Below, piece by piece: positions 1-59,256 of a stretch of 59,256 nt of DNA. The notes below the pieces were generated by a model. It did not search any database. It was not told the DNA's origin and saw only the letters and a program-made list of their open reading frames with translations. Source of the DNA: Planctomycetia bacterium (GTDB lineage: Bacteria; Planctomycetota; UBA1135; UBA2386); contig SXPB01000094.1 of NCBI GenBank assembly GCA_005776475.1, forward strand, positions 1 to 59,256, in the 5' to 3' direction. Made by a program: the position numbers and the translations under genes. Within the stretch, counting starts at the first letter, position 1. Each line of letters begins with the position of its first letter.

Positions 1-816
1 ACCACGCTGCTGCGGCTGCTCGCGGGCATCGGCCAACCGGCCGGCGGTGCGATCAAGCGCGCGCACAACCTGCGCATCGGCTACTTCAGCCAGGAGAAGA
101 ACGACCTGCCGCACCAGGGCACGGTGCTCGAAGCGTTGCGCGAAATCGACCGCACCGTCGACGAGCGCACGCTGCGCGACCATCTGGCCCTGTTCCTGTT
201 CTGCGGCGACGACGTCGAGAAGCCGGTCAGCGAGCTGTCCGGCGGCGAGAAGCAGCGGCTGTCGTTGGCGCGCATGACCCGCGCGCAGTTCGACCTGTTG
301 TGCCTCGACGAACCGACCAACCACCTCGACGTCGCCGGCACCGAAGGTCTCGAGCAGGCGTTGAAGGAGTTCCCCGGCACCGTGGTGCTGATCACGCACG
401 ATCGCAAGCTGGTCGAAGAAGTCGCCGACCGCGTGCTGTGGGTCGAGAGCGGGGCCGTGCGCACGTTCGAGCAGGGCCTTCTGCACTGCCAACGTGTGCT
501 CGCCGAAGAGCGGGCGGCTGCGCGCGCCGCCGAAGTCGATGCGCGTGAGCGGGCGGCGAAGAAGGCCGAAGCCGCGGCGCCCGCGGGCGAGCCGAAGAAA
601 GCGATCGAGACCGGCAAGGTCCGCAATCCGCTGATGTTCCAGAAGCTCGAGGAGCGCATCTTCGCGCTCGAAGCCGAGATCGAGGCCCTGCGCGCGGCGA
701 TGCTAGATCCAGCGAACTACGCGTCGGCGAGCAAGATGAAGGAACTGCAGGCGAGCGAAGTGAAGAAGAAGCAGGAGCTAGCCGAGGCCTACCAGCAATG
801 GGAGAACTGGCAGTAG
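1..816 (+). CDS. ABC-F family ATP-binding protein (Uup-like), 5'-truncated by window edge
   Basis: Frame open from base 1 (TTLLRLLAG, the tail of Walker A). Motifs LSGGEK, LCLDEPTNHLD and ITHDR. C-terminal coiled coil ends in YQQWENWQ. Confidence 0.9.
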   Translation, partial: TTLLRLLAGIGQPAGGAIKRAHNLRIGYFSQEKNDLPHQGTVLEALREIDRTVDERTLRDHLALFLFCGDDVEKPVSELSGGEKQRLSLARMTRAQFDLLCLDEPTNHLDVAGTEGLEQALKEFPGTVVLITHDRKLVEEVADRVLWVESGAVRTFEQGLLHCQRVLAEERAAARAAEVDARERAAKKAEAAAPAGEPKKAIETGKVRNPLMFQKLEERIFALEAEIEALRAAMLDPANYASASKMKELQASEVKKKQELAEAYQQWENWQ

Positions 817-52729: not shown

Positions 52730-53677
52730 GTGATGTCCGTCCGCTCCCACTTCGGTGCCTTCCTGTTCGCGGCGTGCAGCGCCGCATTTTCCCCCGCCCA
52801 GTCGCTTCCCGAGAACGCGATCGAGACGCTCGAACGCGCGACGACGCGCATCGAGACTGCCGAGACCGAACTTGCGCAGGCCAAGCGCGAGCTGCAGCAG
52901 CTGCGCAAGGCGCTGAGCAAGGCGCATTCGACGCACGAACGCGAGATGGCGGAGCGACACCAGTCGCAGGAACGCGAGCAGCAGGCGCTGCGGCGCGAGA
53001 TGGAGCAGGCCCACCGTGAGGCGGTTCGCGCGGCGGAGCAGGCGGCGCGGGAAGCGCAGCAGCAGCACGAGCAGTCCCATCGCGAGGCGATGCAACAACA
53101 CGAGCAGGCGATGCGCGAAGCGCAGCGGGCGGCGACCCAGGCGCAACGGGATGCCGAGCGACACCTGCGGGACGCGGCCCGCGGCCAAGAGGACCACGGT
53201 CGGTTGCGCGAGCAACTGCTGGAAGAGCTGCAGAAGGCGCAGGTCGAACTCGATGCCGCGTCGCAGGCGCTCGGCGACGAGGCCCCGAAGGCGGCACGGA
53301 CGAGCGTCGCGCGCAGCAAGAACCGGGTGCAGGCGGCGTTGCAGCGGGCGTCGGGTGATGGTGGTCGCTGCGCGCCGCCGCGGCGCGTGATCATGAACAC
53401 GGCCGTCGGGCAGGTCGCGCCGTCGACGGCGCCCGCTGCCGACCCGGCGGCGGCGGCGTGCAGCGCTGCCTGCACGGAAGCGCCGGCGCCTGCCTGCCCC
53501 CCATGCGAAGCGACCCCGGCGACCCCGGCCTGCCCTGCATGCCCCGAGACGCCGGCCTGCACGGCGACGGCTGCCACGGCGCCAACTCCCGCGCCCGCGC
53601 CGACGCCCGCGCCCAAGCCCACTCCGGCGCCGAAGCCGACCAAGCCAGCTCCGGCCGCCCCGCGCCAGATCAACTGA
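52730..53677 (+). CDS. Exported coiled-coil protein with Cys/Pro-rich tail
   Basis: GGAGG RBS; signal peptide (SPA|Q); E/Q/R/H-rich heptads; CSAAC, CPPC, CPAC and PAPTP repeats. Confidence 0.7.
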   Translation: MMSVRSHFGAFLFAACSAAFSPAQSLPENAIETLERATTRIETAETELAQAKRELQQLRKALSKAHSTHEREMAERHQSQEREQQALRREMEQAHREAVRAAEQAAREAQQQHEQSHREAMQQHEQAMREAQRAATQAQRDAERHLRDAARGQEDHGRLREQLLEELQKAQVELDAASQALGDEAPKAARTSVARSKNRVQAALQRASGDGGRCAPPRRVIMNTAVGQVAPSTAPAADPAAAACSAACTEAPAPACPPCEATPATPACPACPETPACTATAATAPTPAPAPTPAPKPTPAPKPTKPAPAAPRQIN

Positions 53678-53742
53678 GCGGCCCGACGCAGCGCTCGGTC
53701 GGATTCTCGAATACCTTCGGTGCCCCTGTGGCACTGAAGGAC

Positions 53743-54285
53743 ATGAGCTCGCTGTTCGCGAACGTGGCATCGGCGCCGCCGCCAGCGGCCACCGTCGAAG
53801 CGACGATCCGCCGGCACCTGCAAGGGGTGTGGCGCTATGTGCGCATGCTCGGTGCCGGCCCGGAACTCGCCGATGACCTGACGCAGGAAGCCTTCGTTGT
53901 CGCCCTGCGGCGTGACGCGACCGGGCTCGAACCGGCGGCGTTGGCGACGTTCTTGCGCCGGACGGCGCGCTTCCTGTTCTTGCGGCATCTGCGCGATCGC
54001 GAGGACGCGGTCCTGCTCGCGGACGCCGTCGATGAGCTGTGGGCCCGCGACTGCGAAGCCGACGACGGCGACGGCATGCTGGCGGCGCTGCGCGCTTGTG
54101 TCGGCGAGTTGCAGGGACGAGCCCGTCTCGCGGTCGAACGCAGCTACGGCCTCGTGGCCGAGCCCGAACGCTCGCGCGTCGAGCTGGCGCGCGAACTCGG
54201 CATGGAACCCAACGGCGTGAAGACGCTGCTGCAGCGCGTGCGCCAGACGTTGCGTGCCTGCGTCGAACGGAGGCAGAAGTCATGA
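53743..54285 (+). CDS. ECF RNA polymerase sigma factor
   Basis: VWRYV..ADDLTQEAF; ELARELGM...VKTLLQRVR; AAGGA RBS. Confidence 0.9.
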   Translation: MSSLFANVASAPPPAATVEATIRRHLQGVWRYVRMLGAGPELADDLTQEAFVVALRRDATGLEPAALATFLRRTARFLFLRHLRDREDAVLLADAVDELWARDCEADDGDGMLAALRACVGELQGRARLAVERSYGLVAEPERSRVELARELGMEPNGVKTLLQRVRQTLRACVERRQKS

Positions 54286-55415
54286 ACCAGGATCCACGAA
54301 CGGACGCGCGCGAGCGCGCCGAGGAGTCGCAGATGGACACGTTGTTGCACGAAGCGGCGGGCTACGGCCCGAGTCCTGCCTTGGTCGATCGCATCCGCTT
54401 CGCGCTGCAGGCGCCCGGGGCGCCGCCGCTCGCGGTTGCCCGGCCGCGCGCGCTGATGCCGGCGCAGTGGTTGTTCGCCGCGGCGCTGGTGGTCGGCGTC
54501 GGTGTGGTGACGGCGGTTGCCTTCATGCGTGGCAGTGAGCAGAAGGCGCTGGCGACGGTGCCGCAGGATCCGGTTCCGGTGCCTACGCCCGTTCCGACGC
54601 CGACTCCCACCCCCACGCCGACTCCCGCGCCGACTCCCGATCCCGCAGCGAAGCAGGAGCCAAAGCCGACCCCCGCACCCGCAGCGAAGCCGGCGTTGGC
54701 CTGGTTCACGTTGATCGCCGACTACTCCGACAACCGCATCCGCGAGTACGACGACAAGGGCAAGCTCACGCTGGAGCTCAACGAGATCTTCGGCGCCTGG
54801 GACGTCGAGCCGCTCGCCAACGGCAACCTGCTGATCACCGAGTTCTCCGTGAGCCGCGTCCAAGAAGTGACGCGCACCGGCAAGCAGGTCTGGGTCTTCG
54901 AAGACTTGAAGAACCCTTACGACGCCGACCGCCTGCCCAACGGCAATACGCTGATCGCGGACACGTTCGGCAGCCGCGTGATCGAGGTGAATGCGAAGGG
55001 CGAGATCGTCTGGACCTTCGACAAGAAAGTTCGTCCGTTCGATGTCGATCGCCTCGCCAACGGCAACACGCTGATCACCGACGTGGTGAAGGAGCGCATC
55101 ATCGAAGTCGACGCGAAGGGGGCGATCGTATGGGAACTTGATGAAATGCCGAACGCGCACGACGCCGATCGATTGGCGAACGGCAACACGCTCGTCACGC
55201 TGCGCAACAAAGGCGTGGTTCGCGAATACGACCCGGACGGCAAGGTCGTTTGGGAGGTCGACGGCCTGTCGTCGCCGAGCGACGCCGACCGCCTGCCCAA
55301 CGGCAACACGCTCGTGGCCGAGAACACGCGCGTGCGCGAGTTCGACAAGGACAAGAAGGTCGTCTGGGAGACTCCTTCGACCTGGGTGGTCGAAGTCAGT
55401 CGCTACCAGCGCTGA
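54282..55415 (+). CDS. Putative anti-sigma factor with Pro/Thr linker and beta-propeller sensor
   Basis: ATGA overlap with the sigma gene; one TM; (PT)n linker; repeats DADRLPNGNTLI..RV.E....G.IVW. Confidence 0.8.
   Translation: MNQDPRTDARERAEESQMDTLLHEAAGYGPSPALVDRIRFALQAPGAPPLAVARPRALMPAQWLFAAALVVGVGVVTAVAFMRGSEQKALATVPQDPVPVPTPVPTPTPTPTPTPAPTPDPAAKQEPKPTPAPAAKPALAWFTLIADYSDNRIREYDDKGKLTLELNEIFGAWDVEPLANGNLLITEFSVSRVQEVTRTGKQVWVFEDLKNPYDADRLPNGNTLIADTFGSRVIEVNAKGEIVWTFDKKVRPFDVDRLANGNTLITDVVKERIIEVDAKGAIVWELDEMPNAHDADRLANGNTLVTLRNKGVVREYDPDGKVVWEVDGLSSPSDADRLPNGNTLVAENTRVREFDKDKKVVWETPSTWVVEVSRYQR
54571..54690 (+). repeat. Coding low-complexity (Pro-Thr/Pro-Ala)n linker
   Basis: Imperfect 6-bp ccgact/cccgcg-type repeats encoding PVPVPTPVPTPTPTPTPTPAPTP. 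Confidence 0.8.
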
Positions 55416-55416
55416 G

Positions 55417-57861
55417 TCACTTCGTCCGGCCCGCCGCCGCGTTCATCGCGTCGAGGAACTTGCCCCAGTTCTCCGTCTGCGCGCCCGGCGTGAAACCGTC
55501 GGGCTGCGCTTCGCCGAGCACCTTGTTGGTCTTCGGATCGAAGACCACGAACGTGGGCATCGCCCGGATCTTGGTGAACTGCTTCTGCAGCTCGCGATTG
55601 CGCGCGAGTTGTTCCTTGGTCAGGTGCTTCTGCAGATCGACGTGCAGACGCGCTTCCACGAACCCCTTCTTCATCGTTCCGGCGACCGCCGGACGCAGGA
55701 AGACGTCGTCTTCCATGGCGCGGCAGTTGATTCAATTGAACCCGGTGAAGTTGTAGAGCAGCAGCTTGTCCTCGGCCTTGGCAACTTCGAGCGCGCGATC
55801 GCCGTCGTCCTTCACGATCGCGTGGTAGGCGCTCTGCTTCGGCTTTCCGTCATTGGTCGCGCCCGAGGCATCCGCCCGCGTCGCCGACAGCGGCGCCGAA
55901 TAGGGCGGCGCGAACGCCGTCATGTAGTAGTCGAGCTTGTAGCCCATCGCGCCGAACAGGAAGTAGGTCGCCACCAGCACGACTGCCATGCCCGTGGCCA
56001 TGCGACCGGCGCCGACGCCTTCGTTGACGGTGCCGGCCTTGCGCAGGATGCCGAACAGGTACATCGCCCACAGCACGAAGATGGCGACGATCAGCAGCAG
56101 GAACAGTTCGCGCGGCAGGGCATTCCAGTCGAGCGCGATGTCGACCATCGACACGAACTTCAGGGTCGCGGCGAGTTCGACGAAGCCGAGCGAGACCTTC
56201 AGCGTCTCCATCCAATCGCCCGAGCGCGGCAGGGATCGCACTTTGCTCGGCATCAGCGACAGCACTACGAATGGTAGAGCCATCGTCAGGCCGAACACGG
56301 CCATGCCGACGGAGACTCGCGTGTAGCCGAGTTCGACAATCTGCGGCAGGATCGTGCCAACGATGGGTGCCGTGCAGGTGAACGACGTGATCACCAGGGC
56401 GGCGCCCATGAAGAACACGCCGGCATAGCCGCCGGTGGAGCTCGCCTTGCCGGCGAGGCTCTGCAAGAACTGCGGCGGCTCCAGCGTGATCCAGCCGAAC
56501 AGCGAGAACGAGAACAGCAAGAACACGATGCCGATCACCGAGTTGGTGGCCCAGTGGTTGGCGATGTCGAGGATGACCGTCGACAGCAGCACGCCCACCA
56601 ACACGAACATCACGATGATCCCGAGCCCATAGGTGATGGCCAGCGACAGAACGTTGCCGCCGCGCTTCTCCGCCTGCTTCGTGAAGAAGCTGAAGGTGAT
56701 CGGGATCATGGGGTAGGTGCACGGCATCGCCAGGGCGAACAGGCCGCCACCGATGCAGGCGAGGATCAGCACCCACCAGTTCATGTACGGGTTCTCTTTC
56801 GTGCCGGTGTCCGCGGACGATTCCCCGGTTCCGTTCGTCGGCTTCGGCGGATCCTGCTTCGGCGTGTCTTGCTTCGGGGGATCCTCCTTCGGCGGCGCAG
56901 CGGGCGCGGCAGTGCGGTCGGCGCGCGCGTCGCCGGCTTCGACCGTGAGCTTCACTTCGAAGTCGAGTTGCGAGGTCGGTTCGCACACCCTGGAGTCGCA
57001 GATCTGGTAGACGAGCGCTCCGGAAACGTCGACGACGCCCGGTTTGGTGGCCGCTGGCACGCGGAACGCCTGCTTCACCTCGAACACCGGCGGCAGCGGG
57101 TAGGTGGTCTTGTTGGCCTTTTCCGTCGGTGTGCCGGGCGGCACGTCCGCCTCGCCGATGCGTTCGAGCACACCAGCGTCGACGTTGTCGGCTGGCAGGC
57201 CGACCGGCGTCTGCTCGGTCTCCAGCGCGCCGTACGCATGCCAGGCGTGGTCGTGCACCGTGACCGTCAGCACCAGCGTCGCCACTTCGCCAGCGCGCGC
57301 CGTTGCCGGCTCGAACTTCGCCGCGATCGTGACCTTCTCGTCGGGAGCGAGCTGCAGGCCGGGCTTGGTCGTGGTCGGCATCGCCGCCGGATCACCGGCA
57401 GTGACGACGAGCTTCGCGGTGAACGCGGCCTTGTCCGGCGGCAGGCAACCGGTGTCGTTGCAGATGCCGTAGTCGAGTTCGCCGGTCACCGTGATCTCGC
57501 CAGCGGCGAGGCCGGCCGGCAGCTTCATCGGCTGCTTGACCTTGAACTGGTTCGGCAGCGGGAACGTCGGCAGGTTGCCGTGCATCTTGCGCATGCCCGG
57601 CGGGATCTGCGGCTCGCCGTCCAGTTCGAGGCCGTTGGCCTTCACGTTCTCGGCCGTCAGGCTGACCGGCGTGTTGGTCTTCTCGAGCGTGCCGTAGGCG
57701 TGCCAGCCTTCGGTGACGTCGCAGGACAGCACCAGCACAACCTTGTCGCCGGGTTTGGCCGTCGCCGGCTCGAATGCCGCGGTCAGGGTGAGGGCTCCGT
57801 CCTGGGCCGCAAGCGGCGCCAGCAGAACGAACAGGAAGGCTGTGAACGTGAGCCAGCGCAT
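55417..57861 (-). CDS. dsbD: DsbD-like protein-disulfide reductase, probable selenoprotein (in-frame TGA at 55732-55734)
   Basis: Two DsbD-alpha domains (GWHAY..ICNDTGC; WHAY..ICDSRVC); TM domain (MPCTYPMIP, SFTCTAP); then NFTGFN-TGA-INCRAME continuing in frame into a thioredoxin domain ending at 55417. Confidence 0.85.
55685..55727 (-). promoter_or_regulatory. Candidate bacterial SECIS hairpin
   Basis: mRNA ACUGCCG-CGC-CAU-GGAAGAC[GAC]GUCUUCC-U-GCG-UC-CGGCGGU. The apical loop starts with G, with 24 nt between it and the UGA. Confidence 0.65.
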
Positions 57862-57964: not shown

Positions 57965-59256
57965 TCACTTCCTGGGTTGCAGGTGGATCTGGGTGATCGC
58001 GCCCTTGGCGGCCTTCTGGATCTCGGCGTCGGCGTCCTTCGTCCAGTCGATCAGGAAGGGCAGCGCTTCCGGCACGCCGAGGGTGCCGAGCGAGGTGATC
58101 GCGAGCAGGCGCTGTTCCTTTCCGGCACCGGGCTTGCTCTGCAGGAGGAGCTTCTCGACGGCGCTCGAAGGTGATGCGTCGAGGCCCTTGGTGATGCGTT
58201 CCCAGTGGGATTGCTGTTCGTGCACGAAGCGGATTCGGGTCAGGGCTTCGGTGGCGACCTCCTGCACTCTCCCATCTGGGTCGCGCAAGAGTGCCAGCAA
58301 GCCCGGGATGGCTTCGGGAAGCGCGCGGTCGCGGGTGTGCCTGCAGACGTCTTCACGAATGTAGGGATCTGGATCCGTGAGCAGTCGCAGGACCACGTCG
58401 ATGGCGATCGTCTTGTTGCTACGCGTCAGTTCACGGAAGACGTGTTGGCGAACTCGCGGATGCCGATGGGCAAGCAGCTCCTTAAGGTCGATTGCGACGC
58501 CGTTACTGATCAGCCGATCCACTGCCAGGGAGGTCATTTCCTCCTCAGGATCTTGCAGGAGCGCTTTCACGGTCTCGGCAAACGCACGGATGGTCTCCGA
58601 GTGGGCCTTGTTGATCAGGTCGTAGCTTCCGGTCGGTTCGCTGAGTGCCGTGCGAACGAGATCGGCAAGCGGTCCCTTGTTGTCTCGTGAATTGACGAGG
58701 TTCATCACGGTCTCTGTCCACGTGACGTATCCGCTCTGGAACGGAAACCTCATCGGTTGGCAACGAACCAATTCCATCAGCATGCGGTCCGCCACCAGCT
58801 CGCCAGAAACGTCATGCGGCGCCAGCAGCTGCGCATCGGCCTTGCCGACACGTTCGAGCAGGCCAAGCACTTCGGCCTCCGAGTACGGATGCGGGGGCTT
58901 CGGCGTCTTCTGCACGAGCCACGCCAACGGCTTGCCTTCGAATGCGTCCTCGCCGCCGTACGGATGCTTGGAGCGGATCGGATACCGCGAGTAGGCGAAG
59001 GTCAGATCGAGCGCCTGTTCGTCCTTCATCGACAACAGCGCGAGCAGCAATCGCCCGCGTGTGTCCGGAAACATCGACTCCGCGCTCGCCATCGTTCGCA
59101 TCGCGGCGCGCACCGTCTCGTCCTGCGAGCGGCGACTCAGTTCGAGCATCGCAAGGACAGAGGAACGGTCCTTGCCTTGGTCGGTGTCTTTGGTGTGCCG
59201 CCAGTCGTCGAGGATCAACGCAGCTGCGTCAGGATGGCCCGTGCGCACCATGGCGC
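57965..59256 (-). CDS. HEAT-repeat protein, probably 5'-truncated by window edge
   Basis: LLTDPDPYIRE, LLRDPDGRVQEVATEAL and DADAEIQKAAKGAI. Confidence 0.75.
   Translation of the reverse strand, partial: AMVRTGHPDAAALILDDWRHTKDTDQGKDRSSVLAMLELSRRSQDETVRAAMRTMASAESMFPDTRGRLLLALLSMKDEQALDLTFAYSRYPIRSKHPYGGEDAFEGKPLAWLVQKTPKPPHPYSEAEVLGLLERVGKADAQLLAPHDVSGELVADRMLMELVRCQPMRFPFQSGYVTWTETVMNLVNSRDNKGPLADLVRTALSEPTGSYDLINKAHSETIRAFAETVKALLQDPEEEMTSLAVDRLISNGVAIDLKELLAHRHPRVRQHVFRELTRSNKTIAIDVVLRLLTDPDPYIREDVCRHTRDRALPEAIPGLLALLRDPDGRVQEVATEALTRIRFVHEQQSHWERITKGLDASPSSAVEKLLLQSKPGAGKEQRLLAITSLGTLGVPEALPFLIDWTKDADAEIQKAAKGAITQIHLQPRK

Follow-up and report, generated by a model that had tools for sequence, protein, structure and literature searches.

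A putative two-hairpin signal for selenocysteine insertion in a planctomycetal dsbD gene, with the likely SelB-binding loop 44 nt past the UGA

The best-described bacterial SECIS elements are summarized by the consensus of the bSECISearch model of Zhang and Gladyshev: a hairpin within the coding sequence 3′ of the UGA, with a stem of 5–6 bp and a 4-nt loop in which a G, standing first or second, is followed by a U, at a UGA-to-loop distance of 16–37 nt and read by SelB with its winged-helix domains (available text of PMC13188914). A loop G and U are likewise present in the fdhF SECIS of E. coli (G23 and U24; available text of PMC8659212). On the ribosome, the E. coli SECIS has to open in its lower part (available text of PMC4513850), and in a structural model about 57 Å lie between the SECIS loop and the A site, a hinge accommodating differences in spacing (available text of PMC4605307). 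A subset of bacterial selenoprotein genes does not fit the consensus, and distinct classes must exist (available text of PMC13188914), and in one test bSECISearch missed at least 13% of the known genes (available text of PMC12013277).

Here, we analyzed a window of 59,256 nt, the whole of contig SXPB01000094.1 from the assembly GCA_005776475.1 of a Planctomycetia bacterium, which contains a dsbD gene with an in-frame UGA followed by two adjacent hairpins, H1 and H2 (Table 1). Throughout, +1 denotes the first base 3′ of the UGA (window position 55731, minus strand). H2 resembles the bSECISearch consensus in its location, in its loop and stem, and in its predicted binding by SelB; it deviates in the UGA-to-loop distance, which is 44 nt here and 52 nt in four other genomes, and in that a separate hairpin stands between the UGA and the recognition hairpin, the two lying side by side rather than nested. 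In fdhF, 11 nt separate the UGA from the start of the minimal hairpin, which carries the bulged U17; for H2 this distance is about 38 nt, and a bulged U is absent. A bacterial SECIS that is distal or has two hairpins side by side was not found in the literature covered, which included few subscription papers, and neither was a DsbD with a UxxC motif. With a probability of roughly three in four, we consider the dsbD signal to consist of two hairpins, of which H2 likely binds SelB and H1 likely serves as a spacer, the UGA likely being read as selenocysteine (Sec); this reading rests on sequence comparison and RNA folding.

Table 1. Coordinates of the dsbD gene and of the elements of its putative Sec insertion signal in the window.
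Feature	Window position (position relative to UGA)	Strand	Basis
dsbD with UGA readthrough, about 814 aa	55417..57861	(-)	Translation, Pfam
In-frame UGA, predicted Sec in place of the first Cys of the thioredoxin CxxC	55732..55734	(-)	Ortholog alignment, Sec machinery
ACUGCCG, 5′ arm of the flagged lower stem, likely within the ribosome when the UGA is in the A site	55721..55727 (+5..+11)	(-)	
H1, GGAAGAC-GAC-GUCUUCC, flagged stem, likely spacer	55698..55714 (+18..+34)	(-)	Fold, ortholog covariation
H2, UCCGGC-GGUC-GCCGGA, likely SelB-binding hairpin	55678..55693 (+39..+54)	(-)	Covariation, Sec/Cys distribution
GGUC apical loop of H2, 44 nt past the UGA; G+46 = 55686, U+47 = 55685	55684..55687 (+45..+48)	(-)	

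The minus-strand frame of dsbD runs for 734 codons to the TGA at 55734–55732, just where the preliminary description had placed an in-frame UGA, and continues for 104 more codons in the same frame; the start codon was adopted from a 709-aa database entry that stops at the UGA. Pfam assigns DsbD_N, DsbD_TM, and Thioredoxin_2/7 to the product, which is composed of two DsbD-alpha-like repeats (the second recognized by eye), the DsbD transmembrane domain, and a thioredoxin domain with the motif FN-U-INC (UxxC). It thus combines the N-terminal alpha, transmembrane, and C-terminal thioredoxin domains of a DsbD; both membrane cysteines are present, the second one being invariant in 20 aligned rows. 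The protein shares the alpha-beta-gamma layout of DsbD (NF001419) and scores below the cut-off of this NCBIfam model (120 vs 330), as it does for TsoB (NF045694; 116 vs 805), which differs from it as a rhodanese fusion with a UxxxxU motif. A UxxC thioredoxin fold is common to the window DsbD and listed selenoproteins; the listed “thiol:disulfide interchange protein” (WP_011366075.1), unlike the window DsbD, is short and soluble and has no membrane domain. The 119-family selenoprotein table names no DsbD whose C-terminal domain carries UxxC, and a term search of 12 of the 14 supplementary files of PMC4807772 gave no DsbD match for its selenoprotein table. Directly upstream of dsbD and on its strand lies a HEAT-repeat protein (57965–59254, minus strand) that is open at the contig end. 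Convergent with dsbD, and with almost no gap to its stop, an ECF-type sigma factor (Sigma70_r2) is followed by a membrane-anchored beta-propeller protein that is likely an anti-sigma factor (53458–55415, plus strand).

For a comparison among orthologs we collected 240 loci, located the UGA site in 239, and retained 175 that are distinct over TGA+66 nt; for two rows, the site was reassigned by means of the aligned thioredoxin motif. At the UGA site, 150 of these carry TGA and 25 carry TGC or TGT. The public protein entries end at the UGA: all 110 of the best 110 matches span 73–77% of the query region. An assembly error or a true stop is ruled out by the 150 TGA orthologs in which the frame continues, and in all likelihood the UGA specifies Sec. 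The source genome (76% complete) contains selA, selB, and selD above the curated cut-offs together with tRNA-Sec(UCA), and its selD carries an in-frame TGA of its own; among 61 related genomes searched, selB exceeds the cut-off in 58 and selD in 60. The C-terminus of SelB matches the SECIS-bound Moorella fragment 1WSU (E 5.8e-9) and keeps the SRKY stretch of domain 4, whose residues we take to be the loop contacts. A second, non-canonical UGA-reading tRNA was not detected, the next Rfam match after tRNA-Sec being tRNA-Ser. Loss of the machinery was ruled out as the cause of the Cys orthologs: selB lies above the cut-off in most Cys-bearing genomes (G006, G010, G014, G019, G028, G036, G040, G046, and G048).

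The preliminary description had proposed a single SECIS-like hairpin, in which the perfect 7-bp stem GGAAGAC/GUCUUCC carries a G-initiated loop and is extended downward by CGC/GCG and ACUGCCG/CGGCGGU. All of these pairings are present: the H1 stem is perfect, its GAC loop (+25..+27) begins 24 nt past the UGA, and folding of the naked RNA gives the extended structure (+5..+47) as the one of minimum energy, −23.4 kcal/mol. It exceeded dinucleotide shuffles in stability for the hand-picked span (z −3.77) and for the 60 nt from the UGA (z −2.05) and did not over 100 nt (z −0.29). Against synonymous-codon shuffles it was not significant, 21% of 2000 folding the flagged span as well; shuffles as stable as the native single sequence amounted to 14% for H1 and 19% for H2. 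Because the single sequence does not stand above codon shuffles, stability proves little, and we did not count it as support. Directly 3′ of H1 and overlapping the flagged hairpin, whose end coordinate cuts through its loop, lies H2 with a 6-bp stem (−10.2 kcal/mol). Since H2 overlaps the 3′ arm of the flagged lower stem, the two are mutually exclusive.

Evidence for H2 comes from covariation and from its distribution between Sec and Cys orthologs. Among 37 distinct Sec rows, 9 of the 13 pairs of the combined H1 and H2 structure show changes on both sides, with a covariation score that was reached by none of 500 shuffles; H2 contributes the strongest signal with 5 of its 6 pairs, and H1 contributes 4. 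In 11 Cys rows, 47% of the cells pair, the same as the shuffle level. A tree was built from the upstream membrane domain, for which 124 of the 175 rows were long enough; on its 100 Sec rows, double compensatory changes numbered 24 for H2, 11 for H1, and none for the flagged lower stem, and broken-pair events 72, 45, and 41, respectively. The outer H2 pairs are often broken; the counts include rows that lost H2. Some compensations alter the encoded amino acids and still preserve the stem (CCGGA/UCCGG, GAGGC/GCCUC, and CCCAC/GUGGG). All 142 Sec rows that remain after removal of 8 rows with indels have G+46 and U+47, whereas among the 23 Cys rows kept (2 dropped) 13 have G+46; both bases also form the start of a Val codon (+46..48), for which 117 of 124 distal rows use GTC, vs a genome usage of 43%. 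The loop and stem of H2 agree with the bSECISearch consensus, and the loops of fdhF and of Moorella 1WSU presumably read GGUC as well. H2 was found in 128 of 150 Sec vs 3 of 25 Cys orthologs, so that it follows the general pattern of a bacterial SECIS in being kept with Sec and lost with Cys. In phylogenetically independent Sec/Cys pairs, H2 accompanied Sec in 6.1 of 7 on average and never the opposite (p ~0.03). On the tree, several Cys rows fall within groups of Sec rows, and the Cys-bearing orthologs L044:1273-1338, L207, and L270 retain remnants of H2, which is consistent with reversion from Sec. RNAalifold predicted no consensus pairs on a 39-row alignment, which we attribute to the two competing folds, and no Rfam SECIS family was among the 4 matches at E up to 10 in 55500–55900.

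Nearly all Sec orthologs that lack H2 have a possible alternative. Hairpins with an N-G-U loop were sought by constrained folding, since a detector limited to perfect stems overlooks proximal hairpins that contain a single mismatch; the detector and its thresholds were set up with the data in view, and the background in the source genome is 12–17% per site. Of the 150 Sec rows, 117 have such a hairpin at the distal position only, 21 at the proximal one only, and 11 at both, and 1 has none; among the 25 Cys rows, 21 have neither, 3 a distal, and 1 a proximal one. In 21 of the 22 Sec orthologs without H2, the hairpin thus stands at the canonical position, nearly always on H1, vs an expectation of 42% under a synonymous null. 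The proximal loop G occupies five positions (+22, +25, +26, +27, and +28), and the distal/proximal state switches 7 times on the tree; in independent pairs, H2 was lost and a proximal loop gained in 3.4 of 5 with none opposite, which is not significant (p 0.25). If pairing of the first 10 nt is prevented, all 128 H2-bearing orthologs form a hairpin upstream of H2. The 44 nt that separate the H2 loop from the UGA violate the bSECISearch spacing rule, but the effective distance with H1 folded lies within its range: if H1 is counted as 2 nt, the loop G is found at a median of +24 (range 18–32). L048, L195, and L230 carry insertions that make H1 longer and keep the effective position at 22–25. A further set, drawn from other families of the phylum, had 75 loci, 13 of which were missed by the motif search and one row of which repeats L103; here, the 43 Sec rows comprise 16 distal only, 1 with both, 13 proximal only, and 13 with neither, and the 19 Cys rows comprise 14 with neither, 4 proximal, and 1 distal; of the 17 distal loops in Sec rows, 11 lie at +46 and 4 at +54 (AGUU loop).

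The other Sec genes of the source genome provide a reference for these positions. A codon-usage scan yielded 39 motif-bearing readthrough candidates, from which 18 were chosen by eye as credible; the genome accordingly holds at least 18 credible Sec codons, mostly in exported thioredoxin-fold proteins, along with Trx7/PDZ, SelL-like, SelW-like, and CopZ-like proteins. In 16 of the 17 credible candidates outside dsbD (sites and loops assigned by eye), the loop is N-G-U or N-G-G with its G at +19..+33, the same range as the effective positions of the H2 loop, and in two of them it is a GGUC identical to that of H2. The N-G-U loop is not universal in the lineage: a family of UxxC redoxins (C190; L290 at G000:C190:1000+, orthologs L306–L335) keeps TGA in 29 of 30 loci and has weak N-G-U hairpins only, in 6 of 30. 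A distal hairpin with an apparent loop at +47 was not upheld across these 30 loci. In the predicted fold, a conserved CGGGGG (about +58..+63) closes a long-range stem, G+19 and U+20 often lying unpaired in a bulge, and the C190 signal is possibly another atypical SECIS. Three FG-GAP-repeat proteins (Pfam) with an in-frame TGA in the context W/C-U-C (L291, G000:C116:4797+; L292, C199:25098+; L293, C124:665+) have no NCBIfam match and are absent from the 2026 selenoprotein catalogue table; in all 25 orthologous loci (L336–L360; two overlap and share their site), the TGA is conserved along with a compensated AGUU-loop hairpin with G+21, and these proteins likely constitute an unlisted selenoprotein family. 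Moreover, L294 (G000:C7:2246- and 1820-) encodes in one frame two UxxC thioredoxin domains, each with its own downstream hairpin, and is a probable double selenoprotein. An msrB with an in-frame TGA at K-x-DSGCGWPSF (L303, G000:C201:31693-) may represent a pseudogene, a sequencing error, or unusual recoding; this position is not known to hold a Cys in the MsrB family.

Given these patterns, the role of H1 can be read in more than one way. H1 is conserved in all Sec classes (mean z vs codon shuffles −1.5 and −1.9) and not in Cys rows (−0.3), and its linker to H2 measures 0–1 nt in 98 of 128 folds, which would permit coaxial stacking. SelB has a second RNA-binding surface on its winged helices 2–3. 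H1 might therefore be a second functional arm, with domain 4 reading H2 and H1 either being bound in a sequence-independent manner by SelB or the ribosome or slowing the ribosome. We judge this improbable, as the same conservation is predicted by a spacer role alone and a single hairpin suffices in most other Sec genes here.

Slightly less probable still is the interpretation that comes closest to the preliminary description, namely that one long hairpin binds SelB through G+25 of the GAC loop and that H2 is incidental. It agrees with the minimum-energy fold of the naked RNA, H1 satisfies both the spacing and the early-loop-G rule (available text of PMC13188914) and covaries, and each lower-stem pair is kept in 99–135 of 142 rows. 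The loop G, however, is not conserved in the Sec orthologs, where the base at +25 is A, G, U, or C in 68, 39, 22, and 13 of 142, respectively, vs G in 12 of 23 Cys orthologs. Covariation is confined to the upper stem: the 7-bp lower stem shows no both-side change, neither in the 37 distinct Sec rows nor in all 142, and its 5′ arm is fixed by Asn, Cys, and Arg codons. The Arg codon at +10..12 of the distal rows is mostly CGC (78 of 124) rather than CGG (17 of 124), which would lengthen the stem, and selection for the lower stem was rejected on both grounds. Of 71 changes at +41..+44, 27 remain paired in H2 vs 2 in the lower stem, and the long hairpin leaves unexplained why H2 disappears together with Sec and is replaced by a loop on H1. 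The preliminary description rightly saw in this region the SECIS of a genuine Sec codon and in GGAAGAC/GUCUUCC a structure under selection, as the ortholog covariation indicates. Its GAC loop, in turn, is probably not the SelB site, the matching GGUC loop standing on the next hairpin, and probably not the SECIS form of the lineage either, since a GAC loop occurs in none of the 17 other candidate Sec codons. Finally, H2 might be a by-product of P-A-V-A conservation within the thioredoxin domain and of GC-rich codon usage, the true signal lying elsewhere or being loosely defined, as the already high synonymous null (93–109 of 150 vs 128 of 150 observed), the non-significant single-sequence stability, and the lack of a clear loop in the C190 family would allow, but this is very improbable in view of the amino-acid-changing compensations that preserve the stem, the repeated loss of H2 in Cys reversions, and the choice of GTC in the distal rows.

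For the preferred two-hairpin signal, folding calculations suggest how the recognition hairpin could become accessible. Without constraint, the lower stem forms with a probability of 0.58–0.75 and H2 with 0.25–0.42; if the first 8 nt past the UGA are held unpaired, these values become 0.00 and 1.0. The ribosome would cover at least these first 8 nt and thereby melt the competing lower stem, much as the lower stem of the E. coli SECIS is to be unwound (available text of PMC4513850), whereupon H1 and H2 would form side by side. H1 would fold out about 20 nt and bring the loop G of H2 to an effective position of about +24, where the winged-helix domain 4 of SelB could bind G+46 and U+47. SelB would then deliver Sec-tRNA to the A site, resulting in full-length DsbD with Sec as the presumed attacking residue of the thioredoxin domain. 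As the lower stem bears no sign of selection, we regard such a ribosome-gated switch as a possibility. Beyond this gene, we lean toward the view that SelB can decode a UGA from a hairpin 44–52 nt away by means of a spacer hairpin, that during the evolution of the Planctomycetota the distal hairpin and the tip of the spacer have repeatedly exchanged the recognition loop, and that the ribosome may unmask the loop by melting the competing stem.

If this holds true, it would define a structural class for atypical bacterial SECIS elements that current models miss. The locus illustrates that a hairpin which abides by the rules can be the wrong one, and a distal recognition hairpin could ease the amino-acid constraints on the design of recombinant selenoproteins. 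The locus offers a concrete, alignable atypical architecture with natural gain and loss variants, which makes the need of SelB for a fixed distance between UGA and loop testable.
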